From the NCBI RefSeq assembly GCF_024223415.1, contig NZ_CP100500.1: a stretch of 64,000 bases of DNA. One strand, written 5' to 3'. Below the pieces are notes generated by a model that searched no databases, had not been told where the DNA came from, and saw only the letters and a list, made by a program, of their open reading frames with translations. A program made the translations under genes and the position numbers. This DNA is from Escherichia coli (GTDB lineage: Bacteria > Pseudomonadota > Gammaproteobacteria > Enterobacterales > Enterobacteriaceae). Shown here in pieces: positions 5,311 to 24,095 of the stretch. How positions within the stretch are numbered: the first letter of the stretch is position 1; each line of letters begins with the position of its first letter.

Positions 5311-7304
5311 GATAACTTCCTGTTAATCACGCAATCCGGGTTAGCCGTCAGGCTTCCGGTATTACCGTTGATTTCAAAACCCTGAACCTGGCGCATTTGT
5401 GAGAAATGATTTGCCAGCGACCAGGCATCAACGCCCACCGCATACATGCGAGCCAGTGAATAATCGTTATTCACCGCGCTGAGTGCCTGCTGCATTAACG
5501 GCAGATTACCGCCCGCCAGCATCGGGATTTCGCTGTACTGCAAACCTTCCATCTCCAGACGGAAATCCGGGCCTGCGGTGCCTTGTGCGCTGCGGGAGCT
5601 GGCGTACAGCGTTGCACCGCTCTGGCTACCGTTACGCATGGCGATCATCGGTTTGATAAAAGCGATTTCACCCGGCGTTGCCACAATGTACACCGCATCG
5701 ACACGACCGCCATTATTGGTGAATTGGTCATCGGTTGGCGTGGTTTGCAGCGTTGGATTGTTGGTCGTCATGCCGGAGTCGGTTGTCGCTCTGAGAGTAA
5801 TCGGGCTACCCGTTAAAGCGATACCAGAACCGCCGTTAACACCCGCGCGTAATTCGCTGGTGGAACCAAATTTTTGTTGCAGAACGGTGCCGCCGCCCAG
5901 TTTCTGCCACTCTTGCGCAAACGCATTGGCTACGCGATCGCCCAATGAACTGCGTGGGATCAGCACCAGCGGCGCTTGTTTACCCTGGTCACGAATATGA
6001 CGCGCTGCATCGCGCGCTTCGTCTTCCGGTGAAAGCGCGAAGTAACAAATATTGACGCGATTTTCGATATTCTCCGGCTGGTTCAGTGCCAGTACGTTCA
6101 GCGGAGTGTTGCTCTTCAGCAACTCTTCAACGTTATTTTTCAGCAACGGACCGACCACAATACTCGCGCCATCCTGCTGAACCTGGCTTAAGATCTGGCT
6201 AAGTGGTTGTGATGAGGTATCGTAGATTTTCAGCTCTGCGGATGGATTTGCGGGTGCGCTTACCGCTGCGGTGCTTGTCGCCGGGGCGCTTACAGGCACC
6301 GGCTGGGCTGCAGGCTGTTCACCGGTCAGATCGCTAACCGAGGCTTGTGCCGGGCTGGCAACGCCATCCACGGTTTGCGGTTGAGGTTGTTCTGCAACGT
6401 CTGCGGCAGGTGCGGCAGCTACCTGAGCTGCCACTGGCTGAGTGCCGATATTTTTCGCCGCTTCAAAGCCTTGCTGAATAGTGCGACCAAATACCGCTGC
6501 CTGGCCATTCAGTGGCAACAGCAGGGCGATTTTGTTGGTCGAGGCTGGTTTAAACGCTTTTACGTTAACCAACTGCGTTGGCAGCATTTTCGCGCCCGGG
6601 TTGTTCGGATAACGTTTCTGCCAGTCGGCGATCCCGGCTTTCATCATGTCGGGATCGTTACGGTTATCAAACCAGACGCGCTGCAGATCCAGCCAGCCTT
6701 GCAGAATATTTTCGTCGGCGTTGATCACCAGCGTATTCGCCTGTTCCTGAGTCATGGAGGAGAGCGCCTGCCAGGTGGCATCAATATTCTGCTGTTTTTC
6801 TTTCGCGCCAAGCAGCGGTTCCTGAGCAATTAACGCGCGCAGTAAATCAATGGAAGGACGCCCCTGGCTGGCATCGATTTTTGCCCGCCAGTAACGGACT
6901 TGCTGGTTTTGTTCTAAATCGGCGGGTGTAATTTTCGCCAGCAAGTTTTGCGCGCCAGCAAAATCTTTCTGCGCCAGTTTAATCTCTACCGCCAGCAGTG
7001 TTTTCTCGCGGCGCTGAGAATCATTCAGTTCTTGCGGTAGTTGGTTAAACAACTCAACCGCCTGCCCGGTTTTACCTTCTTTCACCAGTGCACGAATGGC
7101 GAGTAATTGCCAGTTGATCCTGGTATCATCAGAGCTTTGCTGCATCTGCTGAAGATAAAAGGCAGAATCAGCCTGCGCCGTGCCCTGCATATAAGCAGTG
7201 GACTGATCGGGAGTATGGGTGCCACAACCGGCGAAAATCAGGGCTGCCAGAACAACAGGTAGACAACGCGCGGCTTTCAAACGAGAAAATGTTGAGGGTA
7301 CCAT
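5268..7304 (-). CDS. lpoA: Penicillin-binding protein 1A activator lipoprotein LpoA
   Basis: ORF 5268..7334; start at [28 protein letters not shown] (lipobox) gives ~678 aa; TPR-like N-domain, Pro/Ala-rich linker. Confidence 0.9.
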
Positions 7305-7368
7305 AATGTATCCAGTGATATTTTTTTTACGCAATGCTCAATATTAAATCGGCAATACGGACGACACA

Positions 7369-8229
7369 ATGAAACAACACCAATCGGCGGATAATTCTCA
7401 GGGCCAGCTTTACATTGTACCGACGCCAATCGGCAATCTGGCGGATATCACCCAGCGTGCGTTAGAGGTATTACAGGCCGTTGATCTGATTGCCGCCGAG
7501 GATACTCGTCACACCGGTTTATTGCTGCAACATTTTGGGATTAATGCCCGGTTGTTTGCGCTGCACGACCATAACGAACAACAAAAAGCCGAAACGCTGC
7601 TGGCGAAGCTGCAAGAGGGGCAAAACATTGCACTGGTTTCCGATGCCGGAACGCCGCTAATTAACGATCCTGGCTACCATCTGGTGCGTACCTGCCGTGA
7701 AGCGGGGATTCGTGTGGTGCCGCTACCCGGACCGTGTGCTGCTATCACTGCGTTAAGCGCCGCGGGTTTACCCTCTGACCGTTTCTGTTACGAAGGCTTT
7801 TTACCTGCCAAATCAAAAGGCCGCCGTGATGCGCTAAAAGCCATTGAAGCGGAGCCGCGCACGCTGATTTTTTATGAATCTACCCACCGTCTGTTAGATA
7901 GCCTGGAAGATATCGTTGCGGTATTAGGCGAATCCCGCTACGTGGTTCTGGCACGTGAGCTGACCAAAACCTGGGAAACCATTCACGGCGCGCCCGTTGG
8001 CGAGCTGCTGGCGTGGGTAAAAGAAGATGAAAACCGTCGCAAAGGCGAAATGGTGCTGATTGTCGAAGGTCATAAAGCACAGGAAGAAGACTTACCCGCC
8101 GATGCCCTGCGCACGCTGGCGCTGTTGCAGGCAGAACTGCCGCTGAAAAAAGCGGCGGCGCTGGCAGCAGAAATTCACGGCGTGAAGAAAAATGCGCTAT
8201 ATAAGTATGCGCTGGAGCAGCAGGGGTAA
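7369..8229 (+). CDS. rsmI: 16S rRNA (cytidine1402-2'-O)-methyltransferase RsmI
   Basis: 286-aa ORF …[15 protein letters not shown]…, divergent from lpoA. Confidence 0.9.
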
Positions 8230-8271
8230 GAGTGCCGAAGCGTTGCGTTAATCAAAACGCAACGTCTTCTT

Positions 8272-9363
8272 TTACCGCACGATGACGGTAATGGTGGCTG
8301 TGCCCTGAAATTTTCCTGTTTCCAGCTCACCACCGACCAGATTAACTGGCCAGGCGCGCATATTGACGGTGCCATGCCCGGAAGGATCAACGGGAAGGAT
8401 ACCGTTCTGAAAAGGAATATTTGCAACTCCGCCGCCGAGATTTTCAATACGAATACCGACATCGGGCGCATTGTCTGAACTTCTTCGTCTGGCGACCAGG
8501 TTGTACTGGTCTACTACCCCAGTTGTACCGTCGATGCGCATTTGCAACGAGTTTTTAATCTTTGAAGTATCACCACAGTCATAAGTGATATCAAAGTCTA
8601 CTGGAGTAAAACCATCTGGCATGGCATTGCGGGTGGTAAACTTCTGACCATTGATGAATCCAAAATTAACCTTAATAACATCGCCCTGATTAATTTTGCA
8701 CGACTGTGGGGCGGTGAGATTTCCCTGAATCGATAACTTGACTAAATCATGGAAGTCACCTGTAGACGGGCTTCCCATTCCATCGACCCACGCGCCTTTA
8801 ATGACGGCAATATCCGTTTTCGGAATGGTCATCGAGCCGAGAAATGGCTTGGTGACATACAGGGTAAAGGTGGTATTTGCACCAATATTAACGGGTCCAT
8901 AACGAGACGTGTCACCCTGGCAAACACCCGTTTGGGTTGCAGCAGAATATACGGTGCTGCTTTTTATCTGTGTGAATCGGGTGTTAACAGAGACAACCTG
9001 GTCGGTTGTGAGTCCTGGAATGTCGTTTGCCTGTAATGTGGTTTTAATATCCAGGCTGTCATTGAGTTTGTAATATCCTGTCTGATGTCCAGTGGTGGTA
9101 AGTACGGGGCTGACCATATAGACAAGTTTAACTGCCTTACCCGCAGAGCAGGAACAGGCGTATTGCCAGTTAGTGCTACTTAGCGTTGCAGAGGTAAACT
9201 CCCGTCCTGTCACGTTATCTGTCTGGTTCACCGTAACATCATCAACCACACTGCTGTAATTTGTCGCACCGCTAGTGCTGTCGGCTCCACACCCTCCTGA
9301 GGAGGCATAAGCGCAGGATGTGGATATCAACAAAAGTCCTGTCATAAGAGGCGCTCTTTTCAT
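8272..9363 (-). CDS. yraK: Fimbrial adhesin-like protein of yra chaperone-usher operon
   Basis: ORF 8272..9621; signal-peptide start MKRAPLMTGLLLISTSCAYA at 9363 gives 363 aa; last gene after usher. Confidence 0.85.
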   Translation of the reverse strand: MKRAPLMTGLLLISTSCAYASSGGCGADSTSGATNYSSVVDDVTVNQTDNVTGREFTSATLSSTNWQYACSCSAGKAVKLVYMVSPVLTTTGHQTGYYKLNDSLDIKTTLQANDIPGLTTDQVVSVNTRFTQIKSSTVYSAATQTGVCQGDTSRYGPVNIGANTTFTLYVTKPFLGSMTIPKTDIAVIKGAWVDGMGSPSTGDFHDLVKLSIQGNLTAPQSCKINQGDVIKVNFGFINGQKFTTRNAMPDGFTPVDFDITYDCGDTSKIKNSLQMRIDGTTGVVDQYNLVARRRSSDNAPDVGIRIENLGGGVANIPFQNGILPVDPSGHGTVNMRAWPVNLVGGELETGKFQGTATITVIVR

Positions 9364-9373
9364 TTTTTTATCC

Positions 9374-11890
9374 TTAATGGCACTGCGCCGTGCCTTGTAA
9401 TACAGAGGTTGTTGGTTCTGAATCCGGTGTACTAAAAGCAAACTGACATTGTTGATCAGCCTGATTTCCCCAGCGTACAGTCCAGCTTTGTGATTTACTC
9501 GATATCCCAGAGAGATATAGTATGCCGCCCTCATCGACGATACTTTGTTGCCCCGTCTCATCGTTGCTGGCAAGAGCGCCAAAGGGCAACGGTTTACCGT
9601 TGCGATCGCTGACTGTAACAAGTACGCGATAACCGATATTGGCGTTGAAACGCGCCGCTACCATTGCACCTCTATTGGGCACCACAAACTGTGTTGTTTG
9701 TTCAAGATCGACGTTATCGGGCAGCTGCGTAGTATCTACCGAGAGACGGTTTTCCTGATAAGTTGTGAGATAAGGAACCACTGCATAGCCAAAGGGATCG
9801 GTAGCAATCCCCGGATAGTTTTGTATCCTCACGCCAGATGCCCCGTTAGCATCGATAAGCGCAAAAGCGTTGCCCAGATATTGCGAGAGCGTCACGCCAT
9901 GAGGATGGATAACCACGCCGCCGGTAACGCCGTAATTGTATTGGCTGCTGTCATTACCGTAACTGTATCCGGCACTGAAGGTTCCATAAGGTGAACGGTA
10001 ACTGGCGTTCAGGCTACTGTTATGGTTGTTATCGTCATCCAGACTTTGTTCCAGGCTATAGCTCAGGCGACCATCATCCAGCAGTGAGCCATCAAGACGC
10101 ATTTCATGTTGGGTTGGGCGATCTTTCTGGCTGGTCATCTGATAGGAAACCCGGCTACGCGGTAACCAGCGTTCTAACGGAATACTGAGATTCAAAGAGA
10201 GTGCGCGGTCATTATTTTGATCAGTGTAGCGGCTGTATTGATAATTCAGGCTGTAACCAATTCCCCATTGCTGGCCGGAAACCCCAACAGAGATATTCCT
10301 GTTTTTCTCGTTATTGCCCCAATAGTCTTGCTGCGAACCGGAGGCATACAGACTTACCCCATCAAATATTGTCTGGCTGATGTTGAATTGAATTTCACTT
10401 TTTTGGCGACTGTTATAGTCCCAATTGCGGGTATTGGCTTCATCAAAACTAAAATAGCCATCGTTGGTATAGCGATAGTAGCTGACAGCGATATTGGTGT
10501 TGGTTTCCGGGATATCTTTGATGTACTGCGTACGCCATTGATAGCCATGAAAAGAGTGCTGGTTATCGAATTGGGTGTCAGCTCTGTTGATATCCATCGA
10601 CAACGCGCCCAGTGCGCCAAGTGTGCCGCCGATACCGATCCCCAGCGCATAATAATCTTCAGAACCGAGCAGGCCGCCATACAGCGTAAAAGTATTATTC
10701 AAACCATATATTGCCGTGGCTTCAGCAAATTCGGGTTCCTTGCTATCACTGTTTGCATCAGCGCGATAGCGTCCAGCGGTCGCGCTATACTTTAGATGCC
10801 CAGGTCGCTGCATCATGGGTAATGAAGAATAAGGCTGGATAAAGCGACGTTGTGTACCGTCACTTTCTTCAATCGTGACTTCTAAATCGCCGCTGTTGGA
10901 AGAGGGGTAGAGATCGTTAATTTCAAAGGCACCCGCTGGCACGTTGCTTTGATAGATCACATAACCATTTTGCCTGATAGTCACGATTGCACTACTGTTT
11001 GCGATACCGCGTACCGTTGGGGCAAATCCGCGCTGGCTGTTTGGCAACATATTATCGTCGGAAGCGAGTTGCACGCCAGTAAAGGTGTAGCTGGAAAAAA
11101 TACTGCCGCTGGTGGCGCTTTCTCCCAGAAGCAACTGAGACTTCAACGCCTTGATATCACGTTGTAAATAACTACTGATAGTGTTCCAGCTTGACGCCTG
11201 ATCGTTGCGTGTCCACGTAGAATAGTTACGTAATCGCCAGGGGCCAAAATTGGCACCATTTTGCATATTTAGGTACTGTCGTTGGCTACGATTGCCCTGG
11301 CGGTAACGGTTATCAGAACCTGTAAACGAGTAGTTGGTAAACAGCGTTGGTATACCATCGTCCCAACGAGAAGGGGAGACGTAACCTCTTGCATCACGGT
11401 ACAGTGCAATTTGGGGAATGCTCAAATTAAGTCGCTGATGATTGAAATCAAATTCAGCAGCTGTACCGGGAATGATTTGTTCAAGCGAGTTGATCACGCT
11501 ATCGTCATCTTTTTCAGCCAGCGCCGGGATTTCATCCACCTTAATACCCAGCTCACGTAGTTGTTCTACCGTAAACTGTGGCTGCAGAAGTTGCTCTGCA
11601 TTGGCGGTAAATGTAATTTTTTTCTGTGAAACCTTCTTTTTATTCAGCCAGATATCAACCTGATAAGTTCCTGGTAGTTGTGCGTATTTTTTTGAAAAAC
11701 GTGACAGATCGGTTGTTTGCATACCACTTTTTGTGGTTTCCAGCATAATGGGGTCGAAATAATACTCTTCGGCGTTAGCGGTAGTGCAAAGCATGCCGCT
11801 GCCAGTGAGCACCATCGGCAAACAGCGTTTGATAATGAGCGCCAACTGTTTCGGTGTGCGTTTATGTCCCTGGTGGTGTCGTTGTGGCAT
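9374..11890 (-). CDS. yraJ: Fimbrial outer-membrane usher protein
   Basis: ORF 9374..11965; start MPQRHHQGH… gives 838 aa; typical usher size and position. Confidence 0.88.
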   Translation of the reverse strand: MPQRHHQGHKRTPKQLALIIKRCLPMVLTGSGMLCTTANAEEYYFDPIMLETTKSGMQTTDLSRFSKKYAQLPGTYQVDIWLNKKKVSQKKITFTANAEQLLQPQFTVEQLRELGIKVDEIPALAEKDDDSVINSLEQIIPGTAAEFDFNHQRLNLSIPQIALYRDARGYVSPSRWDDGIPTLFTNYSFTGSDNRYRQGNRSQRQYLNMQNGANFGPWRLRNYSTWTRNDQASSWNTISSYLQRDIKALKSQLLLGESATSGSIFSSYTFTGVQLASDDNMLPNSQRGFAPTVRGIANSSAIVTIRQNGYVIYQSNVPAGAFEINDLYPSSNSGDLEVTIEESDGTQRRFIQPYSSLPMMQRPGHLKYSATAGRYRADANSDSKEPEFAEATAIYGLNNTFTLYGGLLGSEDYYALGIGIGGTLGALGALSMDINRADTQFDNQHSFHGYQWRTQYIKDIPETNTNIAVSYYRYTNDGYFSFDEANTRNWDYNSRQKSEIQFNISQTIFDGVSLYASGSQQDYWGNNEKNRNISVGVSGQQWGIGYSLNYQYSRYTDQNNDRALSLNLSIPLERWLPRSRVSYQMTSQKDRPTQHEMRLDGSLLDDGRLSYSLEQSLDDDNNHNSSLNASYRSPYGTFSAGYSYGNDSSQYNYGVTGGVVIHPHGVTLSQYLGNAFALIDANGASGVRIQNYPGIATDPFGYAVVPYLTTYQENRLSVDTTQLPDNVDLEQTTQFVVPNRGAMVAARFNANIGYRVLVTVSDRNGKPLPFGALASNDETGQQSIVDEGGILYLSGISSKSQSWTVRWGNQADQQCQFAFSTPDSEPTTSVLQGTAQCH

Positions 11891-11918
11891 TCCCTGATGA
11901 CCTGTGTTTTTATATTTG

Positions 11919-12614
11919 TTATTGCAGTGGACGAGTTTCTGTCCCGGAACTGCCGCCATAATCATTGATCGCAGCCCATTTCACGTTCTTTCCGCCAGAT
12001 GCTGGAAGTGGTAACTGTTTATGTTCTCCGGGCGCGATATATTCAATTTTGCTTGTGAGATCGGCTTTATCGACTGCCAGTCCGGCAAATACGACGTAAT
12101 ATTCAGTTGGGTTATATATATTGAGTGAATGATCACTACGTTTAAATTCCAGTGATTTCCACGCATCGCTTACCCGTCCCTTCAGGTGTGCGGGGCGATA
12201 AAACATTTTGATCCGTGTTTTAAATACCAGCGTCAACTCGTTAGCATTAACATCATCTGATTTTTTCTTTGCTGGAATGGCACGAACATTAATGTAGAAC
12301 AGCGACTCTTTATTTTCAGGCAGGTTATCAGCTGTTTTAATAATTCGCAGTGATGAATCATCGCCAGCTTCAAGACGAAATAGCGGTGGGGTTATAATAA
12401 ATGGGGCACGGCTTGTACCATCTATATTATCTACCCATGATTGCAGTAAATAAGGCGTTTCTGCGCCTTTGTTTGCGACAGGTAACGCAGCCTCTTTGCG
12501 GCTGGCATCATAGATCACTCGCGTTCGCTGTAAAACGATACCCCCTGCAAGCGCCTGGCCGATACAGAAGCTACACAACAAGGTTATTATCACCGCGAAT
12601 GTTCGTTTTGACAT
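11919..12614 (-). CDS. yraI: Periplasmic fimbrial chaperone (PapD-like)
   Basis: 231-aa ORF with signal peptide, between major subunit and usher. Confidence 0.88.
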
Positions 12615-12693
12615 AGTTATTTTTCAACCTGATACAACGAGAAAGAGGAAGGAAAAGGGCGTTATCTGAAAGGTCAGATAACGCCGTAACGTA

Positions 12694-13278
12694 TTAACGG
12701 TAATCCAGCGTTACGTTAACGACAGCGTCTGCTTCCCCTGGGGTGATTTCTGATGCTTCAACGGTTGATACGTAGTAAGCGATGAGGTCAACATTAACAA
12801 CTCCAGCGGAGTCCGCAGGGATCTGATAAACCGTGTTATCATTGCCCATAGCATTTAGTGGCATAAGATTTCCGCTTTCCGCATCGTCAATACGGATACC
12901 CACACCTGTTGCTGCTGTGCCAGCAAAAGAGCCCACTTTTGCCAAGTTAGGGAAGTTAGGGACGGTACCATTATCCCGCGTTTCCAGCCATAAACGGAAA
13001 GACGCTTCAACGTTGCCGTTATCGTGCTCCCACCCAGTCACTGGGCAGTTAACTAAAGGAATAGTGAATGGAATTTTTGGGCTACGATCGCCTACAGAAC
13101 GAAACTGTTCGGCATTATAGTGACCAAGAGCAACTTCAATTTTCTTATCAGAGTCATTGATTTCACAAGCGGATTTTAAAATCTCGCCATCAAAAACTAT
13201 TTCACCATCGGTTGCAGCGGCATTACCTGCGAAAAGCGCAAGTAAGCCCGCAATAGCTGTTTTTGTAACTTTATTCAT
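12694..13278 (-). CDS. yraH: Fimbrial major subunit-like protein
   Basis: 194-aa ORF with signal peptide MNKVTKTAIAGLLALFAGNAAA; first gene of operon. Confidence 0.85.
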   Translation of the reverse strand: MNKVTKTAIAGLLALFAGNAAATDGEIVFDGEILKSACEINDSDKKIEVALGHYNAEQFRSVGDRSPKIPFTIPLVNCPVTGWEHDNGNVEASFRLWLETRDNGTVPNFPNLAKVGSFAGTAATGVGIRIDDAESGNLMPLNAMGNDNTVYQIPADSAGVVNVDLIAYYVSTVEASEITPGEADAVVNVTLDYR

Positions 13279-13678
13279 TTATAACTTTATCCTTGTAACA
13301 AGTACATAATCATATTTAATGTGAATATATGTTCAACATCTTTAAAGATTATACAGGTAGAAATATTTCATTGAACATTAAATAGACTAAACTTTAAGAT
13401 TATATTTATATGCAAATATTTGATATTTTCATTATATTGATATCAATTTTCTATGTATTCAAAAGAGTATAAGTGCATGACTTTGCTGCGCCAGGGGGCG
13501 AGTCAGAATACGAGATGGTTTATTAATAGAACAAGTTATATGTATATCTAAAATTAAATTGTTGAACATAACTCCTTTTTCTATTGGCGTTATGTTCAAC
13601 CCAGTCAAATGTTATTTAATATAATGCGTGACTGTTGAATAAGTTAATTTAAACATTTTGAGCAAATTTTTCATCTGG
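13279..13678. promoter_or_regulatory. AT-rich yraH upstream/promoter region with repeated ATGTTGAAC motifs
   Basis: About 400 bp of low-GC DNA; motif copies at 13327-13340, 13371-13378, 13561-13570, 13591-13600, 13631-13640. Confidence 0.5.
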
Positions 13679-14434
13679 TTAGGTATTAATTAAACAAATA
13701 AAGTTACTGTGCAGCCACAAAAACGAAGCCGGGATAGAGGTAGAGACTTTAGCCGTGAGAAAACGTTCTGTCGCATCCTGCTTTCCTTCGCCAGTCACCA
13801 GTAACAAAACCTCGCGGGCATTGAGAATATCCTTCAGGCCTAAGGTGATCCCACGAGTCACGGGGCGACCCGCGGTTTTTAACATCTCATGTTGCTGTGT
13901 TCTGGCATCAAGTTGACTGATATGGCAGGCCGGTTGCAGGTTTTCTCCCGGTTCGTTCAGCCCAAGATGACCGTTTTTCCCCAATCCGAGAACGCATAAA
14001 TCCAGACCGCCTTTGCGCGCAATCAGGTTCGTTACCCGTTCGCACTCTGTCTCATTTATCTCTTCGGAGCGAAAGCTGATGAGCTGGTCTTCACGTAGCC
14101 CCAGCGGCTGCACGATATGCTGTTGCAGGAAAGTTTCGCAGGTGCCAGGCATAGTTAATGGCAGATCCACCCATTCGTCGAGCTTGACGAAGGTCAGCAG
14201 GCTGACATCAACCTGCTGCTGGTGGATTTTTTCTACCAGATAATGATACGTCAGTAATGGCGTGGCTCCGGTCGCCAGGCAAATCACGGCATCCGGTTTG
14301 CTACGGATCACGGCCAATAAATATTCGCTGGCACGTTCACTTAACGCCGTATAGTTTTCAACTTGCTGAAGGGTTTGCACAGGATGAAATTCCTTAAGTA
14401 AAGAGGCACCGCCAGACGCAGTGCCTCGTTCCAT
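13679..14434 (-). CDS. agaI: Putative galactosamine-6-phosphate deaminase/isomerase (NagB-like)
   Basis: 251-aa ORF, last gene of agaS-kbaY-agaBCDI operon. Confidence 0.88.
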   Translation of the reverse strand: MERGTASGGASLLKEFHPVQTLQQVENYTALSERASEYLLAVIRSKPDAVICLATGATPLLTYHYLVEKIHQQQVDVSLLTFVKLDEWVDLPLTMPGTCETFLQQHIVQPLGLREDQLISFRSEEINETECERVTNLIARKGGLDLCVLGLGKNGHLGLNEPGENLQPACHISQLDARTQQHEMLKTAGRPVTRGITLGLKDILNAREVLLLVTGEGKQDATERFLTAKVSTSIPASFLWLHSNFICLINT

Positions 14435-15226
14435 TTACAAAATGCCGAATGCGGAACAAACAATAGAGAGCACAAAAGTCACGCCGATTAACAGCACCGG
14501 ATGCGCTTTTTTCACCCGCAGGAAGTAATACATCAGCAGGGTGTAGGCCATCGGTAAAATGTTCGGGAAGACTTTATCGAAGAAATCCTGTTGCAGCGCG
14601 ACGCTGTGGGTACTGTCGATGGCAAACGATGTCACCACGTTAATATGCACATACGAAGCGATCAGCCCGCCGATTACCGTGATCCCGAGGATGGTTGCCG
14701 AGCGAGCAATCATCTGCGAGTTCTCTCGCACTTTATCGATCGCCTTCACGCCGACTGAATAACCGACGTGGGTCCAGCCGACGCGCAGGAAAAAGATAAG
14801 CAGGTAAACGGCGAAAAATAGAATCGGCCCCAGCAGGTTTCCCTTGCTGGCAAATGATGAGCAAATTCCCGCCATAATCGGCAACAAAGTAAACCAGAAA
14901 ATCGCATCGCCAATCCCGGCGATTGGGCCAAACAGTGCCACTTTGAGGCCTTTAATGGTGTCGCGGTTTTCTCCTTTTTCTTCCATCGAAATTAATAACC
15001 CCATCAGGAATCCGACCAGATTCGGGTGGGTATTAATAAATTCGAGGTTATCTTTCATCGCTGCGCTTAGGCCCGGTTTGTCATCCTTATAAATCTTTTT
15101 CAGGATCGGCAACATCGCCCAGGTAAAACCGCCCGCTTGCATCCTTTCGTAGTTAAAGCTCGCTTGCAGCAGCGACGAACGAAAGCCCAGACGGGTGATA
15201 TCTTTTTTACTGATTTCAGATCCCAT
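14435..15226 (-). CDS. agaD: Galactosamine PTS EIID component
   Basis: ORF 14435..15373; start MGSEISKKDITRLGF gives 263 aa; paralogous to agaE. Confidence 0.85.
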   Translation of the reverse strand: MGSEISKKDITRLGFRSSLLQASFNYERMQAGGFTWAMLPILKKIYKDDKPGLSAAMKDNLEFINTHPNLVGFLMGLLISMEEKGENRDTIKGLKVALFGPIAGIGDAIFWFTLLPIMAGICSSFASKGNLLGPILFFAVYLLIFFLRVGWTHVGYSVGVKAIDKVRENSQMIARSATILGITVIGGLIASYVHINVVTSFAIDSTHSVALQQDFFDKVFPNILPMAYTLLMYYFLRVKKAHPVLLIGVTFVLSIVCSAFGIL

Positions 15227-16019
15227 TGCTGTAGTCCTCTTCTTCATTTTTACTGGCAACGGGCTGCGGTTGCGCTTGCTGCCGGGATTTCGCATTGAAA
15301 AACTCATACACCGCAAAGCCTGCGCCCAGTACGGCAACCGGCAACAGGTTGCTGACCTGGATGTAGCAAACAAACAGGAAGCCGGCGATCAGGTAAGGGA
15401 TATATTGTGCTTTGAACATCACGCGCAGCAGCAAGCCAAAACCAACGGCAGGCAGAATACCGCCAGCCACTTCAAAGCCGTGGGTCAGCCAAGCGGGCAT
15501 CGCTTTCACCAGCGCCTGCATCGCCCCTTGTGCCAGGTAAGTACAGAGGAAAGCAATCACCGCATACGCTGAAGCGACGATGAGCATCGTTGTCCAGTTA
15601 AGTCGGGAAAACGCTGCCGTATCCGCCTCTTTCGCGCATTTATCGGCTTTGGTCATAAATAATGAGAAAGCAGAATAGAAGAACAGAATGACGTACTGCA
15701 TTAACAAACTAAACGGCAGGCCAAGACCAATTGCCGTTTTGGCATCAACGCCCGTAGACCATGCAATGACGGTGGTCATCAGACCCGCCATAATCGGGTT
15801 GGGCGGCTGAACACCACCTGCAGGGGTTAATCCGGCGAAAGCCAACTCTGTCAGACCACCGGTAATTAAGCCAGTCTGAATATCACCGAGAATAGCGCCA
15901 GTTAGGGTACAAACGATTATCGGGCGGAATAAAAATAAGGCTTCCAGCCAAAAATCAATCCCCAGAACGAAAACTAACGCCGCCAGGGATAATCCCTGAA
16001 GTAGGGTTATTTCATGCAT
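15216..16019 (-). CDS. agaC: Galactosamine PTS EIIC component
   Basis: 267-aa membrane ORF, paralogous to agaW. Confidence 0.88.
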   Translation of the reverse strand: MHEITLLQGLSLAALVFVLGIDFWLEALFLFRPIIVCTLTGAILGDIQTGLITGGLTELAFAGLTPAGGVQPPNPIMAGLMTTVIAWSTGVDAKTAIGLGLPFSLLMQYVILFFYSAFSLFMTKADKCAKEADTAAFSRLNWTTMLIVASAYAVIAFLCTYLAQGAMQALVKAMPAWLTHGFEVAGGILPAVGFGLLLRVMFKAQYIPYLIAGFLFVCYIQVSNLLPVAVLGAGFAVYEFFNAKSRQQAQPQPVASKNEEEDYSNGI

Positions 16020-16057
16020 TTTTATTACCTCAAACCAATATTAAGGCGATTTTAGAT

Positions 16058-16534
16058 TTAGTCAGGGATTTGTTCTTTTTGATCGCCAGGGACGTCCTGA
16101 ATGAAAACATTCACGCCACGTTGTTTAATAAAACGTAAGTCCGTGAGATCCTGGTCATCGACATAAACTTTACTGCTGATTTGCTTTTTCCCTTCCGAGA
16201 AATGCATATTGCCGACGTTGACATCTTTCAGGTCAATGCCACCTTCTACCAATTTACGTACCGTTTGTGGCGTACGGCAAATCAGGAAGATCTTCTGATG
16301 CGGTGCAGCTTTGCCGATGACGTTAATGGTTTTTTCGATAGTAAAGAAACGAATGCCAAAGCCGTAGGTTTCTGCGGTAATACCCATTAATTTCTGTTGA
16401 ATATCATCGTTAGCGACAACATCATCCACGACTACCAGCAGATTCGCACCGATGGTGGATGTCCAGGTCACGCCAACCTGACCGTGAACCAGACGGTTAT
16501 CAATACGGGTTAAGAGAATATTTGGACTGCTCAT
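16058..16534 (-). CDS. agaB: Galactosamine PTS EIIB component
   Basis: 158-aa ORF MSSPNILLTRIDNRLVHGQVG… mannose-family EIIB. Confidence 0.9.
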   Translation of the reverse strand: MSSPNILLTRIDNRLVHGQVGVTWTSTIGANLLVVVDDVVANDDIQQKLMGITAETYGFGIRFFTIEKTINVIGKAAPHQKIFLICRTPQTVRKLVEGGIDLKDVNVGNMHFSEGKKQISSKVYVDDQDLTDLRFIKQRGVNVFIQDVPGDQKEQIPD

Positions 16535-16700
16535 TGTGTAATCCTCACCATAAAGTTGAATAATATAATTTTTTTAAATATATTATTGTTGCGATATTGT
16601 ACTGATGTATTTATTAAGGTTTAGTCATCTCCTTTTCCATTAAGGCACTCCCCGATATTAATCGGGAAGTACATTGGGATAAATCATAAAAAACTAATGA

Positions 16701-17573
<873 letters not shown>

Positions 17574-18728
17574 TTATGCCTGCCACGGATGAATGATTAC
17601 GCCTTGCACCACGCGGTTAACGGTGCCACTGGCTGATGGGGTATCCGGCGTATTGCCCATGTGCAGCGACTGCATCAGTGCAAACGTCTGGGCGTACATC
17701 AGGAAGCAAAATGCCTGCTCAACGTCGATAAAGTGACGTGACGGTGGCAGGATGATATGTGGACCGGCAGCGACGATGTCGCTGCTTTCCGCGGCGATGG
17801 CGATTACACGCATTGCCTGGTTGTCACGGCGAAGTTCAGCCAGCAGATCAAGATCATACTGACGGGTGTAAGGGTGGCTGGAGACAAATACCACCACCAG
17901 CGTTTCGTCATCGACCAGCGATTTTGGTCCATGACGGAATCCGGTTGGAGAATCATAAAAGGCCGCCAGTTTACCCGCCGTCAGTTCCAGCACTTTCAGC
18001 GCCGACTCGCGTGCTGCGCCCTGTAAGCCACCGCTGCCGAGATAAACGATCCGTTTCCACGGTGCGTAACCAAACACACCTTCGCTGAAATCGCCCAGTG
18101 AGGTCAGGATCGCCTGGCAACGATCCGCCACGTCGCGGAAGGTTTGGCTGTTGATCGTCTCAGGTGCGAAAACCGCGAGGCAGCTGGCCATCATGGTGGT
18201 AATGCTGCTGGTCATCGCAAAGCCGCGATCGTGCGTTTCTGCGGGCATCAGCACGGCAAACGCGTTATCGCTATTGATCGCGTTTTGGTAAAGAGCGCCC
18301 GCTTCGTTGCAGGTGATCGGCAGGTGATAGCATTCAGGTACAAATTGATTTGCCAGTTCCACGGCTGCGACGCTTTCCGGGCTGTTGCCGGATCGACCGA
18401 AGGAGATCAACAGCAGCGGATGGGCTGGGTTCAGGTAGTCCATCGGATTAGTGACCAGATCGGTGGTCGGTACGGCGCTGAAGTTTTTACCGGTATGGCT
18501 GGCGAGCCACGGCGCGATGATGTCACCGATAAATGCCGAGGTTCCGGCTCCGGTCAGGATGATCCGCAGATTCTCTTTGCGCAGTAACGGTTCAAGGAAG
18601 TTATTGAGCGCGGAACGTAGCGCGTCGATGTTGGTGAGTGAACGGATCCATGCGCGAGGCTGTTGGCGGATCTCTTCTTCAGTCCATGTTCCGGTTGCGG
18701 CGGCAGCAGGGGTGTAATTTTCTGGCAT
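17574..18728 (-). CDS. agaS: SIS-domain sugar-phosphate isomerase/deaminase AgaS
   Basis: 384-aa ORF, first gene of agaS operon. Confidence 0.9.
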   Translation of the reverse strand: MPENYTPAAAATGTWTEEEIRQQPRAWIRSLTNIDALRSALNNFLEPLLRKENLRIILTGAGTSAFIGDIIAPWLASHTGKNFSAVPTTDLVTNPMDYLNPAHPLLLISFGRSGNSPESVAAVELANQFVPECYHLPITCNEAGALYQNAINSDNAFAVLMPAETHDRGFAMTSSITTMMASCLAVFAPETINSQTFRDVADRCQAILTSLGDFSEGVFGYAPWKRIVYLGSGGLQGAARESALKVLELTAGKLAAFYDSPTGFRHGPKSLVDDETLVVVFVSSHPYTRQYDLDLLAELRRDNQAMRVIAIAAESSDIVAAGPHIILPPSRHFIDVEQAFCFLMYAQTFALMQSLHMGNTPDTPSASGTVNRVVQGVIIHPWQA

Positions 18729-18920
18729 AACTCAATCCTTAGTCTGATGAACTTGACGTCGGGCGTTGTCGCTTTCACTTGCCTTTCGTTTCATTTCACT
18801 TGGTGATGTCTTTCGTTGATTAAAATCTATAGAAAAGAAACTGAAAGTTCAATGGAGAAAAAAGAAATAAAACGAAATTTGTGATCGTTGAAAGAAAAGA
18901 CAAGGGAAGATTAAAGAATT
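18729..18920 (-). promoter_or_regulatory. agaS promoter region with AgaR operator-like CTTTCGTTT repeats
   Basis: Repeated CTTTCACTT / CTTTCGTTTCATTTC / AAACGAAAT motifs upstream of agaS. Confidence 0.6.
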
Positions 18921-18924
18921 GCGT

Positions 18925-19015
18925 AATGACGTCGCTATGTTCACCGATTGCCGGATGCGGCGTACCGTAGGTCAGATAAGACGCGTTAGCGTTGCATCCG
19001 ACACCGCTGCACAGA
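18925..19015. repeat. REP element
   Basis: GCCGGATGCGGCGTACCGTAGGTCAGATAAGACGCG…GCATCCGACA palindromic unit. Confidence 0.75.
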
Positions 19016-19078
19016 TCAAAACGAAAGAAAAAGAAAGGCCTTACGGGGGAAGTGAAGGCCCAATAATGGAGCAAACCA

Positions 19079-20212
19079 TCAAAACGAAGCTAATTGACCC
19101 TGAATCCAGATTTGTTGCACATGCAGCCCGCTATCCAGCGCAACGACGCTGGCGCGTTTGCCCGGTTTAAGCGATCCCAGAACACCATCAACACCCAGCA
19201 TTCGCGCCGGATGCAGCGATGCCATATGAATGGCTTCCGCAGGCGTTACGCCCGTCAACTCGACCATATTGCGCACTGCCGCATCAACAGACAGCGTACT
19301 GCCCGCCAGCCCACCGGACGCGGTACGGACAACGCCACCGTGCATCTGCACTTCTTCGCCACATAACGTATAGCGACCATCCGGCATCCCGGCTGCCTGC
19401 ATCGCGTCGGTGATCAGTACGATTCTCTCTTTCGCACAGCAACAACACAGCGACATTGCCGCCGGATGCACATGATGACCATCGGCTATCAGTTCCAGCC
19501 AGGCGCGCTTGTCCGTTAATCCCGCGCCAACCATTCCCGGTTCGCGGTGATGTAAACCTGTCATCCCGTTATAGCAATGCACCAGGCCGTCGGCACCAGC
19601 ATCAAACGCGGCGCGAGTTTGTTGCCAGGTCGCCGCGCTATGCCCCAGCATCACTCGTACATTTTGCTGTTTAAGATGGCGGATGGCCTGCAATGCCCCC
19701 TCTTTTTCCGGTGCCAGCGCTACCACGCGTAAGGTGTGCTGAGAAACGGCAATCAATTGATCCAGCTCGGCAATTTCCAGCTCGCGAAACAACTCCGGCG
19801 GATGCGCGCCTTTATTCTGCGGCGTGAAGTACGGTCCTTCGAGATAACTCCCCAGCACTTGCGCACCAGGTCCGCCGCGTTGGCAACGTTGAGCAATACG
19901 TTTCAGCGCCGCATGAATGGTATTAAGCGGCGCGGTTACGGTGGTCGGTAACCAACTGCCGACACCTTCGCGTGCCTTGTGCATTGCCAGCTTGTCGAGT
20001 ACATCCGGCGCGTCATCCATTACATCAACGCCCGCACCACCGTGTACATGGGTGTCGATGTAAGCAGGGCAGAGCAGTTCCGCATCGCGTTCAGTCACGC
20101 CCACTGGAATCGGTTCGATTGCTGCGATGACACCGTCAGCAATACGCAACTGATGGTCATCGAGCCATCCCTCTTCAGTCAGCAGCCTTCTGGCGCGCAG
20201 AACGTGTGTCAT
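19079..20212 (-). CDS. agaA: N-acetylgalactosamine-6-phosphate deacetylase, full length
   Basis: ORF 19079..20233; start MTHVLRARRLL gives 377 aa; truncated in K-12 but intact here. Confidence 0.88.
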   Translation of the reverse strand: MTHVLRARRLLTEEGWLDDHQLRIADGVIAAIEPIPVGVTERDAELLCPAYIDTHVHGGAGVDVMDDAPDVLDKLAMHKAREGVGSWLPTTVTAPLNTIHAALKRIAQRCQRGGPGAQVLGSYLEGPYFTPQNKGAHPPELFRELEIAELDQLIAVSQHTLRVVALAPEKEGALQAIRHLKQQNVRVMLGHSAATWQQTRAAFDAGADGLVHCYNGMTGLHHREPGMVGAGLTDKRAWLELIADGHHVHPAAMSLCCCCAKERIVLITDAMQAAGMPDGRYTLCGEEVQMHGGVVRTASGGLAGSTLSVDAAVRNMVELTGVTPAEAIHMASLHPARMLGVDGVLGSLKPGKRASVVALDSGLHVQQIWIQGQLASF

Positions 20213-20643
20213 ATCCCTTCCTCGACCGGACATTCTTCATGGCAGCGGCCTAACTCGTCCACCAGACTGGTCAGCCCACGATGTCCACACTCCAGCGCCT
20301 GTACACGGAATTCTTCACCGCTTAACCCTTCGCGCTCCAGAACCATCTCCAGTAGCAGTTGCAAATTGGTGCCGGTGATCACTTCACAGCCCGGTTTTTG
20401 CATCGCCAGCGTTGAAGCTACGCGAAACGGCGTGCCGCCCAGCAAATCCGTCAGAAAAACAATGCCGTCTTCACAATCCAGTTGGGCGATGGCCTCTTCA
20501 AGCTGCGATGTAAGCAGCGCGGTGCTTGAGGTTTCCGGAAAATCGATGGCGATAAACTGCGATTGCTCACCGAGAATTTGCTTCATTGCTTTTTCCATGC
20601 CGCTGGCAAACCCGCCATGCCCTGTCAAAATAATACTTAACAT
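20209..20643 (-). CDS. agaF: N-acetylgalactosamine PTS EIIA component
   Basis: 144-aa mannose-family EIIA ORF; gene absent from K-12. Confidence 0.88.
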   Translation of the reverse strand: MLSIILTGHGGFASGMEKAMKQILGEQSQFIAIDFPETSSTALLTSQLEEAIAQLDCEDGIVFLTDLLGGTPFRVASTLAMQKPGCEVITGTNLQLLLEMVLEREGLSGEEFRVQALECGHRGLTSLVDELGRCHEECPVEEGI

Positions 20644-20660
20644 CTAATACCTCATTGTAT

Positions 20661-21545
20661 TTAAAGGAAATGGCAGAATTTACCGACGATGCCGAGAACC
20701 ACGGTAACTGCAATCAGACGCAGCGGACTCCAGCCGCGGCGTACCAACCAAAACATGGTCAGGGTATAGACCAGCGGTAAGAAGGCAGGCATCAGTTTGT
20801 CAATAACATCAGCCTGTAACTTAACCACTGCGTCGCCCGCTGTGATTTCCAGCGTGGTGCTTAAACGAACATAGGTTGCCACCAGCGCACCGATTACCGT
20901 CATCCCAACGATAGACGCAGCATGGCCGACTTTTTTGGTATTCGCTTTAATGAGTGGAATCGCCGCCACGCCCATGCGGTAAGCATAATGCGCCAGACCA
21001 AAACGCAGCCCCAGGTGTACCACGTTGAACAGCACAATAAAGACGACTGCGCCAAGAATGGAGCCTTGCAATGCCAGACTGGCTCCAATCCCGCCACAAA
21101 TCGGCAGTAGCGTTAGCCAGAACATTGCATCGCCAATCCCGCCGAGCGGCGCACCGACGGCAATTTTGGTGCTCTGAATACTGTTAACGTCCTGCTTAGA
21201 ACGCTCCATCGCAAGGATAATGCCGATAACAAATGTCACCAGAAACGGATGGGTATTGAAGAAACCCATATGCCCCTTCATGGCGCGCGCCAGGTCGCGT
21301 TTATTAGTGTGGATCTTTTTCAGAGCAGGCAGCAGACCGTACAACCAGCCGGAAGCCTGCATACGTTCGTAGTTAAAAGACGCTTGTAACAGCATGGAAC
21401 GCCAGGCGACGCGATTGATATCTTTTTTCGTCAGCTCCGCGCCAATGCTCTGATCTTCATACACGTTTTCATTGACGCCAGTCAGCAATGTTTCTTCGTT
21501 TTCACTGACGTTCGGCAGGGTGGTTTGATTAGATGCCATCTTCAA
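20661..21545 (-). CDS. agaE: N-acetylgalactosamine PTS EIID component
   Basis: 294-aa ORF paralogous to agaD; exact start uncertain. Confidence 0.85.
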   Translation of the reverse strand: MKMASNQTTLPNVSENEETLLTGVNENVYEDQSIGAELTKKDINRVAWRSMLLQASFNYERMQASGWLYGLLPALKKIHTNKRDLARAMKGHMGFFNTHPFLVTFVIGIILAMERSKQDVNSIQSTKIAVGAPLGGIGDAMFWLTLLPICGGIGASLALQGSILGAVVFIVLFNVVHLGLRFGLAHYAYRMGVAAIPLIKANTKKVGHAASIVGMTVIGALVATYVRLSTTLEITAGDAVVKLQADVIDKLMPAFLPLVYTLTMFWLVRRGWSPLRLIAVTVVLGIVGKFCHFL

Positions 21546-22308
21546 ATTCCTCTTTCTGTGCCGCAGGTTGAGTCGGTTCAGGAGATTTACGCAGCAGATC
21601 GATCAGCGCCATCGCCAGCGCGGCGGCAGCAATAGCCAGCACCGGTAACTTGAGCCAGGCGGCGGCAACAAAGCCCAGGATGAAGTAGGGGATGTAGACG
21701 TTTTTCATCATGATTTTCAGCAGCACGGCAAAACCGATTGCTGGCATGATGCCGCCCGCGACGCCGAGGCCGTCGATTAATCGTTGCGGCAGGACATCAA
21801 TGATGGTTTTTGCATGTTCCGCGCCGAAGTAGATAGGCAGGAAAGCGCAGAGAAAATAGAAAGTGCCGAGTGCCAGCAGTGCCAGATAGTTTACGCGTTC
21901 AATGCCGCGAGTATCGGCGTTCTCCGCCATCCGGTCGCAGCGAGACATCACGCCAGACATCACCGAGAACAGGAAGGTAATCCCCATCTGTACTGCGACA
22001 GCGAAAGGTACGGCGACACCGACTGCGACATCGGGTTTCACGCCAGTAGTAATGGCAAACGCCGTGCCGACGATAGTACCGATAATCACGTTAGGCGGCT
22101 GTGCGCCCGCCAGCGGGGCCAGCCCCATCCACACCAGTTCCAGCGTACCGCCGGTTAAAATACCGGTATGCAGATCGCCAAGTACCAGCCCGACCAACGG
22201 GCCGAGGACCACCGGGCGGTGCATATGGGTTAAGCCGTTAAACATATCCAGGCCAGCGATAAAGGCGATAATGCCCAACGCGAATGCCTGCAACAGACTG
22301 ATTTCCAT
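21529..22308 (-). CDS. agaW: N-acetylgalactosamine PTS EIIC component, full length
   Basis: 259-aa ORF paralogous to agaC. Confidence 0.88.
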   Translation of the reverse strand: MEISLLQAFALGIIAFIAGLDMFNGLTHMHRPVVLGPLVGLVLGDLHTGILTGGTLELVWMGLAPLAGAQPPNVIIGTIVGTAFAITTGVKPDVAVGVAVPFAVAVQMGITFLFSVMSGVMSRCDRMAENADTRGIERVNYLALLALGTFYFLCAFLPIYFGAEHAKTIIDVLPQRLIDGLGVAGGIMPAIGFAVLLKIMMKNVYIPYFILGFVAAAWLKLPVLAIAAAALAMALIDLLRKSPEPTQPAAQKEEFEDGI

Positions 22309-22318
22309 GATGAATCCC

Positions 22319-22792
22319 TCAAAGTAATTTAAAGAGGTCCACAGCAGGCTCTGTCGGGACGCCCTGAACGAAGCATCCCACCCCAGCGGCTTTCAGGTCG
22401 TTAAATGCTGCGATATCGCCCGCATCCACAGAAACCGTTTTGGCGATTTGTTGCTTGCCATTGGCGTAGTGCATATTGCCAACGTTAATGCGATTCACCG
22501 GAACGCCTCCTTTCACCAGCGTCAGGAAATCGGCGGGTGTTTTACAAACCAGCAGGATTTTCTGTCGATCGGCGGCACGATGAATGTTGTCGATAACTTT
22601 TTGCAGCGTCCAGAAACGTACGGCGATCCCTTCTGCCAGTACCATTTCCATCAGGTTTTGTTGTACCGGATCTTCGGCAACCTCATCGTTGGCTACCAGC
22701 ACCAGATTTGCCCCCGCAAATCCGACCCACTGAACGCCGACCTGACCGTGAATCAAGCGTTCATCAATCCGGCTTAAAACAATATTTGGCAT
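22319..22792 (-). CDS. agaV: N-acetylgalactosamine PTS EIIB component
   Basis: ORF 22319..22828; start MPNIVLSRIDERLIHGQVG gives 157 aa. Confidence 0.88.
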   Translation of the reverse strand: MPNIVLSRIDERLIHGQVGVQWVGFAGANLVLVANDEVAEDPVQQNLMEMVLAEGIAVRFWTLQKVIDNIHRAADRQKILLVCKTPADFLTLVKGGVPVNRINVGNMHYANGKQQIAKTVSVDAGDIAAFNDLKAAGVGCFVQGVPTEPAVDLFKLL

Positions 22793-22814
22793 AGCGTGTT
22801 CCTCTTTGTTTTGC

Positions 22815-24095
22815 TTATTGGCCTTCACAGGCTGTGTGGTACTGCGCCAGGATGTCCTGAATATGGTTGATAATGAGTTCCCGTGGCGTCGGTTGCAGCT
22901 CGCCGGAGCGAACTTTCACGTACTGCAGCGGCAGATACTGGCTGATCAGCGGCAGCGGAATTGGTGAATCCGCCAGATTACGAACCAGATGAGCGAAAGC
23001 GTCATCAATCTGGCTGTCCGGCCAGTAATAGCGCACGCGATCCGAGTAGCTATAACCACGCGCCAGACGACGCGCGTTGCCGTCACCGTGGTAGTGGCTT
23101 TGCCAGTATTCCGGGCGGTCGAGCATCACGTTTTCCAGCACCTGACGCAGACCAGAACAGGCTTTTGCTGGCACCAGTTCTTCTTCAATCGCTGCCAGAG
23201 AGAACAGAGCTTCACGCAGGGCGAAGGTCAGCGCCGGGCCAACTTTCAGAATGGCAAAGTGGTCAATCACCAGCTGGCGCAGCGATTGCGGCGTTTGATA
23301 ATCGGTAGAGTGCGCTTCGAAAATCAGCGTTTCGTAGTTTTCGACCATCTGGCTTAAGGCGGTCGCTTTGGCGGGCTGATAATCAATAACGTTGGTGTGA
23401 TCGAATTCGACGCCGGGTTGAACCACCAGGGCAATGATGCGTGGCCAGATGGCATTCAGACCCTGCTTTTCAAAGGCGTGACGATGGGCTTCCAGCGTGG
23501 CGCGGGCGGCATCCGGCGTGGTGACCGCCAGCTCGCTTAAGGTTTCATGCGCGCCGCCAGGTACCGGCACTTCGGTACCAATGACATACTCCAGATCGGC
23601 TTCGCCAAAGTGTTCAAGACTGGTTTCTTCCGCCACTTTCGCCAGACGGGCGGCGCGTTCAGCCACGATGTCATCAGTTAAGGGAATCGGATCGTCCTGA
23701 CACGACATGCTGCAATCAAGGTGAATTTTTTTGAATCCCGCCGCGACGTAGCTTTTAATCAAATCATCGGCATTGGCCATTGCCTGAGCGGCCGGCAGGT
23801 TTTGCCAGCGGTTTGGCCCCAGATGGTCACCACCCAGAATCAACGCATCCTGCGGGAAATTCAACGAGTCGGCGAGCTGACAAACAAAGCCGCGAAAATC
23901 GGCGGGCGTCATTCCGGTATAACCGCCGAACTGGTCTACCTGATTGGAGGTTGCTTCAATCAGTAACGGCGTTTGATTTGCACTGGCGTAGCGGATTGCA
24001 GCCTCCAGCACCAGCGGATGTGCGGAACAAACGGCATAAATTCCATTTGTTTTGCCCGCTTTGTGCTGTCTCACCATTTCTGTCAGATGTTTCAC
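22815..24095 (-). CDS. kbaZ: Tagatose-bisphosphate aldolase non-catalytic subunit
   Basis: 426-aa ORF, first gene of kbaZ-agaVWEFA operon. Confidence 0.9.

Follow-up and report, generated by a model that had tools for sequence, protein, structure and literature searches.

Escherichia coli carries about 12 chaperone-usher operons, of which yra is one, and the described systems closest to it are the yraHIJK operon of K-12 MG1655 (b3142-b3145), the Ush fimbria, the Lpf fimbria encoded by lpfABCDE and the type 1 fimbria encoded by fimAICDFGH. Here we analyse a 64,000-nucleotide stretch of E. coli DNA (contig NZ_CP100500.1, assembly GCF_024223415.1; hereafter the window), in which an earlier reading made from the letters alone (the sequence-only reading) had placed an intact and probably cryptic yraHIJK operon at 8272-13278. 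Ush (usher UshC; enteropathogenic strain E2348/69 and ST131) is the sister lineage of Yra in a gamma-clade 'Ush/Yra' group that carries LpfD-like or CupB6-like adhesins, and ushC and yraJ are reported never to occur together in one E. coli lineage (PMC5717340); the paper on the genome of E. coli W lists Yra as gamma-1, after Nuccio and Baumler (PMC3032704).

The yraHIJK operon and its closest relatives

The operon lies on the minus strand, and a six-frame list of open reading frames (ORFs) returned its four genes uninterrupted. Read on the minus strand, the yraK stop codon ends on position 8272 and the yraH ATG opens with its A at 13278, so that the coordinates first given for the operon, from yraK stop to yraH start, were exact. 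Two of the ORFs as listed were longer than the annotated genes, namely that of yraJ (9374-11965, 863 residues), which is 838 residues long from the annotated ATG at 11890, and that of yraK (8272-9621, 449 residues), which is 363 residues long from the annotated ATG at 9363. The four gene lengths are identical to those of K-12, each gene is colinear with its MG1655 counterpart, and neither an internal stop nor a frameshift was found in yraH, yraI, yraJ or yraK. With complete Pfam domain sets, K-12 lengths and order, and no disrupting mutation, the claim of four intact genes holds.

The K-12 operon shares with that of the window its position between agaI and rsmI, its gene order and intergenic distances, the same 400-bp spacer, the hairpins and the published promoter sequence. 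The two differ by 79 nucleotides and 27 amino acids over the four genes (95.0-99.0% nucleotide identity per gene). The amino acid differences are concentrated in the C-terminal two thirds of YraH, whose gene is the most variable of the operon (12 amino acid and 29 nucleotide differences; synonymous divergence, dS, 0.11); those in YraK, from K-12 to the window, are I7M, N135S, N136S and V299A. In a megablast search with window 8000-13900, complete E. coli genomes had the locus annotated as yraK, yraJ, yraI and yraH, and the closest match, E. coli O78 strain 3 (NZ_CP084096.1), showed a single operon difference, a synonymous one at 8614. The locus combines the usher, chaperone, pilin subunit and two-domain tip adhesin of a classical FGS-type (F1-G1 short) gamma-clade chaperone-usher system with the agaI - yraH-I-J-K - rsmI synteny and the near-identity of four genes expected of a yraHIJK orthologue. 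Taken together, these results identify the operon, with a probability of about 0.9, as an intact copy of that for the E. coli Yra chaperone-usher fimbria. The identification is already on record, the K-12 annotation and the Prokaryotic Genome Annotation Pipeline (PGAP) both naming the genes, and it adds little weight beyond annotation: intactness means that this strain, near an O78 sputum isolate, could build the fibre.

The products of the operon account for the parts of such a fibre, and all four bear a signal-peptide-like N-terminal segment. YraH matches the Pfam Fimbrial family over profile positions 1-150 of 151 (E 6.7e-27) and has a cysteine pair (Cys38/Cys78); its signal peptide ends in AAA, followed by TDGE, and hydrophobic residues alternate in the mature N-terminus, TDGEIVFDGEIL, from which we infer that DGEIVFDGEIL is the donor strand, such alternation being typical of a pilin donor strand. 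Among solved proteins it is closest to FimA and FimI (E ~5e-10), and its nearest NCBIfam model is LpfA, under its cut-off. YraI contains PapD_N (5.4e-41) and PapD_C (6.9e-12) and aligns end to end with FimC (E 1.4e-43), its R32 and K136 corresponding to FimC R8 and K112, the pair that anchors the subunit C-terminus in PapD and FimC. YraJ has the layout of an usher, with an N-terminal domain (PapC_N 4e-46, 1-145 of 146), a barrel plus plug (Usher 9.6e-217, 1-549 of 549) and a C-terminal domain (PapC_C 2.3e-19, 1-65 of 66), and its residues 39-837 match FimD (E 4e-176).

Akin to lpfABCDE, the operon is ordered major subunit, chaperone, usher and adhesin, and the best NCBIfam models for YraH, YraI and YraK are LpfA, LpfB and LpfD, with LpfC a close second for YraJ and the Fim models next; Lpf differs in that Yra has no fifth, LpfE-like gene. 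Type 1 fimbriae share the usher, the chaperone with its conserved anchoring residues and a two-domain tip adhesin, although the NCBIfam match between YraK and FimH is weak (3.4e-10) and FimH has 279 residues against the 363 of YraK, whose receptor-binding domain is larger. The type 1 system also has FimF/FimG adaptors, FimI, fimB/fimE recombinases and an invertible switch, all of which Yra lacks. Assignment of Yra as an Lpf or Fim equivalog was rejected because all four scores fall far under the NCBIfam cut-offs (for example 73.6 versus 412 bits for LpfD). These profile comparisons make Yra a fimbrial type of its own, similar in its working to Lpf and type 1 fimbriae.

Several further candidates in and around the operon were set aside: the antisense or alternative-frame ORFs at 10217-10795 and 9545-9994 (plus strand), 10354-10680 and 8175-8471 (minus strand), and 8749-9036 and 12833-13120 (plus strand) have no Pfam match and were judged spurious, and a scan of window 7000-15000 against the Rfam families gave zero matches at an E-value of 1 or below.

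Features of the yra locus, with positions in the window
Feature	Position	Strand	Description and basis
yra islet, full extent	8226-13709		5,484 bp; local alignments to empty-site strain AH50
hairpin	8240-8265		between convergent rsmI and yraK; on islet side of junction
yraK	8272-9363	-	predicted two-domain tip adhesin, 363 aa; Pfam Fimbrial, residues 211-362
yraJ	9374-11890	-	outer-membrane usher, 838 aa; PapC_N, Usher, PapC_C
yraI	11919-12614	-	periplasmic PapD-like chaperone, 231 aa; PapD_N and PapD_C
terminator-like hairpin	12658-12685	-	9 nt past yraH stop; 12-bp stem, 4-nt loop, then CUUUUCCUUC
yraH	12694-13278	-	major fimbrial subunit, 194 aa; ORF and Pfam Fimbrial
AT-rich agaI/yraH spacer	13279-13678	-	400 bp; composition, promoter scan
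candidate sigma-70 promoter	13336-13309	-	TTGAAC-16-TATGAT; promoter scan
candidate promoter	13353-13348	-	perfect TATAAT, weak -35 (sigma-70 type); promoter scan
candidate sigma-70 promoter	13446-13418	-	TTGATA-17-TCAAAT; promoter scan

The YraK adhesin and proposed assembly of the fibre

In YraK, the Pfam Fimbrial domain covers residues 211-362 only, leaving some 185 residues (~21-205) with no Pfam family match. A sequence search matched YraK to one solved protein, LpfD (5AFO; E 5.7e-12), and the match spans both domains. A model of YraK, of the kind that the sequence-only reading had proposed, was built by AlphaFold2 on a 39-sequence alignment (mean predicted local distance difference test score, pLDDT, 81); it has the appearance of an LpfD-like two-domain tip adhesin, and a Foldseek search ranked LpfD best (8.6e-20), followed by CupB6, FimH, CsuE, PapG, CfaE and F17-G lectin domains, all of the matches being tip adhesins or lectin domains of tip adhesins. 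LpfD is the solved structure nearest to YraK by both sequence and fold, at an identity of ~20%. The full-length template modelling (TM) scores of the model are low (~0.4), which probably reflects differing inter-domain angles. On profile and model together, residues ~21-205 are predicted to be an LpfD-like receptor-binding domain and residues 211-362 a pilin domain. The modelled domain (~21-205) offers a defined target with which binding to glycans or matrix proteins can be examined.

From homology to type 1 and Lpf fimbriae, assembly can be proposed as follows. All four products would be exported via Sec by their signal-peptide-like N-termini; in the periplasm, donor-strand complementation by YraI would cap YraH and YraK. 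The YraJ usher would take YraI-YraK first and would then polymerise YraH beneath YraK through donor-strand exchange; as YraK has a receptor-binding domain in place of the pilin donor strand, it would be restricted to the tip. Transcription would begin in the 400-bp AT-rich spacer, and the hairpin after yraH would end or stabilise most transcripts there, leaving the major subunit in excess. Forced expression, published to yield functional adhesive fimbriae for K-12, would be expected to do the same in this strain.

A hairpin after the gene for the major subunit is an arrangement familiar in other fimbrial operons. The one that follows yraH is predicted at -20.2 kcal/mol (z -7.5), none of 200 shuffled sequences being as stable, and it is kept both in K-12 and in a copy of the operon in Salmonella (see below). 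A homologous operon in Citrobacter (47-66% identical) has, at the same position, a hairpin that is unrelated in sequence and runs into U6. Conservation of the position without conservation of the sequence supports a role as partial terminator or stabiliser, and the hairpin probably acts in this way on the mRNA, so that more major subunit is made relative to the assembly proteins. At the other end of the operon, the hairpin between rsmI and yraK is stable on both strands (plus strand -23.4 kcal/mol, z -5.4; minus strand -20.6 kcal/mol, z -3.5) and identical in the Salmonella copy; it is likely a bidirectional terminator.

Boundaries, distribution and probable transfer of the islet

Homology to AH50 ends at window 8225 and resumes at 13710, the islet replacing 99 bp of other sequence. 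In a survey of 5,426 complete E. coli genomes, at least 80% of a 5.9-kb query that spans the locus was present in one place in 3,270; some yraK was found in 3,521 and at least 80% of yraK in 3,183. The islet is accordingly present in ~60-65% of the genomes and missing from ~35-40%, in which rsmI and agaI lie ~50 bp apart, and the difference between the two yraK counts indicates that yraK is truncated or split in ~10% of carriers. Both flanking genes occur in two allelic forms, which differ at the C-terminus and go with the presence or absence of yra: the islet supplies the final 9 codons of agaI (13679-13709), giving an AgaI of 251 residues ending in SNFICLINT versus 255 residues ending in NHFTCVIDEMCRR without it, and the last codon and stop of rsmI (8226-8229), giving 286 versus 287 residues. 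The AT-rich, islet-encoded C-terminus of AgaI suggests that the yra allele may have arisen by insertion. Comparison of the 99-bp empty allele with the islet for a deletion scar or microhomology at the junctions gave chance-level matches only.

The ratio of nonsynonymous to synonymous divergence (dN/dS) was 0.07-0.43 per gene and strain pair among the window, K-12 and an O157-type strain, on small counts (the highest value is based on six substitutions). Subject to these counts, such values argue that the open frames are kept by selection and not by chance. We read the islet as accessory and laterally acquired, under purifying selection, and lost or damaged in some lineages. In the bovine O157-type strain E. 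coli 28RC1 (locus L004, 773-1506), yraK is annotated as a frameshifted pseudogene with ~360 bp missing and agaI is interrupted by an internal stop, the genes yraH, yraI and yraJ remaining intact. Features of yraK ranked highly for the clinical outcome of O157:H7 infection in a machine-learning study of 2025 (PMC12711010).

Salmonella enterica GCA_035860025.1 carries a copy of yraHIJK (contig ABPWBT010000002.1, L009, 4086-9092) that adjoins rsmI, as in E. coli. Compared over window 8200-13390, its yra genes are 93-97% identical in nucleotide sequence to those of the window, whereas the core neighbours are 76-88% identical (rsmI 88%, lpoA 76%, yraN 84%, diaA 86%, dolP 82%), a disparity that points to recent transfer of the islet between the genera. 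High identity stops ~110 bp upstream of yraH, the conserved part including the TATAAT; the distal spacer is unrelated in sequence and equally AT-rich, and on this flank a DeoR-family regulator and phosphotransferase system (PTS) genes stand in place of agaI. That the distal spacer is unrelated suggests that an H-NS-binding distal region lies outside the transferred unit. The transfer is consistent with the lateral-transfer view of the Ush/Yra group (PMC5717340), a modest point, and the islet boundaries together with the Salmonella copy make a clean example of fimbrial module exchange.

A bolder extension of these observations, which we offer as rather doubtful, is that the four genes, the rsmI-side terminator and ~110 bp of proximal promoter form a compact mobile yra module. 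It would have passed recently from one to the other of E. coli and Salmonella and come to rest at the same rsmI-adjacent site, with the distal AT-rich H-NS platform supplied or rebuilt separately by each host. Were this so, the proximal TATAAT would be the real driver of the operon, crypticity would be a host-side overlay open to removal in vivo, and differences among YraK alleles would influence colonisation or the outcome of disease.

Identity between the E. coli and Salmonella copies is uneven: the two least conserved 100-bp stretches of the islet are window 9000-9095, corresponding to YraK codons ~90-122 (83% identity), and 12795-12894 in YraH (89%), against ~96% elsewhere in the islet. 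One of these stretches lies within the YraK receptor-binding domain and the other in YraH, which suggests local diversifying change.

The upstream spacer, probable silencing and neighbouring loci

The sequence-only reading had placed the operon behind a long AT-rich upstream region, and this was confirmed by composition: together with the end of agaI, the 400-bp spacer forms a stretch (13279-13709) of 25.5% G+C, as opposed to ~50% in the neighbourhood, with 13.5 TpA steps per 100 bp versus 4.7 for the whole window, and is among the few stretches of the window below 33% G+C. The candidate promoter TTGATA-17-TCAAAT is the K-12 agaI-yraH promoter in a catalogue of RpoD sites from genomic SELEX (systematic evolution of ligands by exponential enrichment), where it carries an H-NS mark (PMC3946193), and its published sequence is identical in the window. 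The same spacer is listed, with H-NS binding, among the 78 'promoter islands' of K-12 (PMC3661553). Promoter-like sites as such are not enriched in our scan (7 found versus 10.3 expected from shuffles), and those within the operon, such as 12534-12507, were dismissed as chance for want of enrichment over shuffles. A search of the spacer for the 10-bp high-affinity H-NS motif TCGATAAATT gave no match within 2 mismatches, a result that is uninformative at this AT-richness. By its AT-rich promoter region, its presence/absence polymorphism and its sharp boundaries, the locus has the sequence features of an H-NS-silenced acquired locus.

In K-12, tests of the operon in an hns background and for adhesion were reportedly carried out already by Korea et al. 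in 2010, as later papers relate. The literature on yra silencing and adhesion appears to trace back to that work: the relevant passages describe the K-12 chaperone-usher fimbriae as cryptic but functional and H-NS-repressed (PMC3559732, citing Korea et al. 2010), count yra among functional but cryptic fimbrial operons (PMC4128348, likewise citing Korea et al. 2010) and state that the yra operon promotes adhesion of K-12 to bladder cells (PMC12711010, citing its reference 42). As RNA polymerase and H-NS both bind the K-12 spacer, from which little is transcribed, the operon would be silent in ordinary culture. The term 'probably cryptic' agrees with these accounts of the K-12 orthologue and is supported, by analogy, for the present strain, whose silence we infer.

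The earlier statement that inducing signals are largely unknown is slightly dated, in that BolA overproduction induces yraH (PMC4337573), transcripts of yraH, yraJ and yraK were present in urinary isolates of phylogroup A/B1 during infection of patients (PMC4128348), and yraH, yraI and yraJ were higher in Shiga toxin-producing E. coli (STEC) associated with haemolytic uraemic syndrome (HUS) (PMC6033998). These in vivo and pathotype transcripts are also one of several points that weigh against an intact but cryptic type 1-like fimbria, since 'cryptic' may mean no more than 'not induced in LB' (lysogeny broth). The sequence, moreover, gives no direct sign of silence, and the spacer differs from that of K-12 at 12 of 400 positions, so that strain-specific expression is possible. 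On the side of assembly, the hairpin after yraH has no clean U-tract, so that termination there may or may not be efficient, and no FimF/FimG-like adaptor or FimI/PapH-like terminator subunit is encoded in the operon, which implies that tip and anchoring must differ in detail from those of type 1 pili.

Three other explanations have to be set against that of an intact fimbria silenced by H-NS. The first to be raised by the transcript data is that the operon is not cryptic in nature and serves as a conditional colonisation factor that answers host or stress cues (for example BolA, or relief from H-NS), its silence in the laboratory being an artefact of growth conditions. Purifying selection on the four genes, a near full-length yraK in ~90% of carriers, the BolA, urinary-isolate and HUS-group data above and the high rank of yraK features in the O157:H7 model all speak for this view, which we regard as a real possibility that nonetheless falls short of even odds: the transcript data are correlative, neither an inducing signal nor an activator site was identified in the spacer, and the ORF list and the annotation of the locus show no dedicated regulator gene within the operon. 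It is in any case compatible with our preferred explanation and not opposed to it. At the other extreme, the operon might be a decaying relic whose frames are open by chance, with fibre assembly lost in this strain. The absence of the islet from more than a third of E. coli, the frameshifted or deleted yraK of the O157-type strain, IS1 or IS3 insertions in the locus of some genomes and the yraH and yraJ pseudogenes of Shigella flexneri 2457T (PMC6854044) fit such a history. In the window, however, the 5 kb of coding sequence are open throughout, with complete domain profiles, the equivalents of the key chaperone residues are preserved and dN/dS is well under 1, and the nearly identical K-12 operon is reported functional on expression, which together make decay very unlikely.

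Still less credible is control by phase variation, through a fim-like invertible promoter or a pap-like Dam/Lrp switch, instead of H-NS silencing. What recommends it is a 17-nt inverted repeat (15 of 17 positions complementary) that flanks the spacer at 13265-13281 and 13691-13707. The yraH start codon, however, falls within one arm of this repeat, and the second arm is part of the agaI coding sequence; by a rough estimate made with no tool, such a repeat is expected by chance in AT-rich DNA, and the Salmonella copy has different distal sequence at the position of the agaI-side arm. When a synthetic query for the inverted junction was run, it was found in 0 of the 3,377 E. coli genomes carrying these sequences, and no recombinase gene lies near the operon. 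A pap-like Dam switch was rejected because the spacer has no GATC site. Silencing of an intact operon by H-NS remains the explanation that we prefer.

The spacer holds a further structure, an AT-rich hairpin on the minus strand at 13561-13600 (12-bp stem, -18.1 kcal/mol, z -5.2, followed by AAUUUAAUUUU). It lies ~80 nt downstream of the agaI stop and may serve to terminate the aga transcript. Within the spacer there are three copies of the decamer GTTGAACATA or its complement, at 13330-13339, 13561-13570 and 13591-13600.

Beyond agaI, the aga cluster (14435-24095) is complete according to a near-identical record, comprising kbaZ, agaV, agaW, agaE, agaF, nagA/agaA, agaS, kbaY, agaB, agaC, agaD and agaI, and this strain may for that reason grow on N-acetylgalactosamine or galactosamine; the K-12 cluster bears a deletion that truncates agaW and agaA. 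Farther along, at position 33465 within yhaC (33181-34369), the window has 7 T versus 8 T in NZ_CP084096.1, where yhaC is annotated as frameshifted; six substitutions separate the two sequences before 33465. The gene lies in another very AT-rich stretch (25-32% G+C), and the yhaC region is also listed as a promoter island (PMC3661553).

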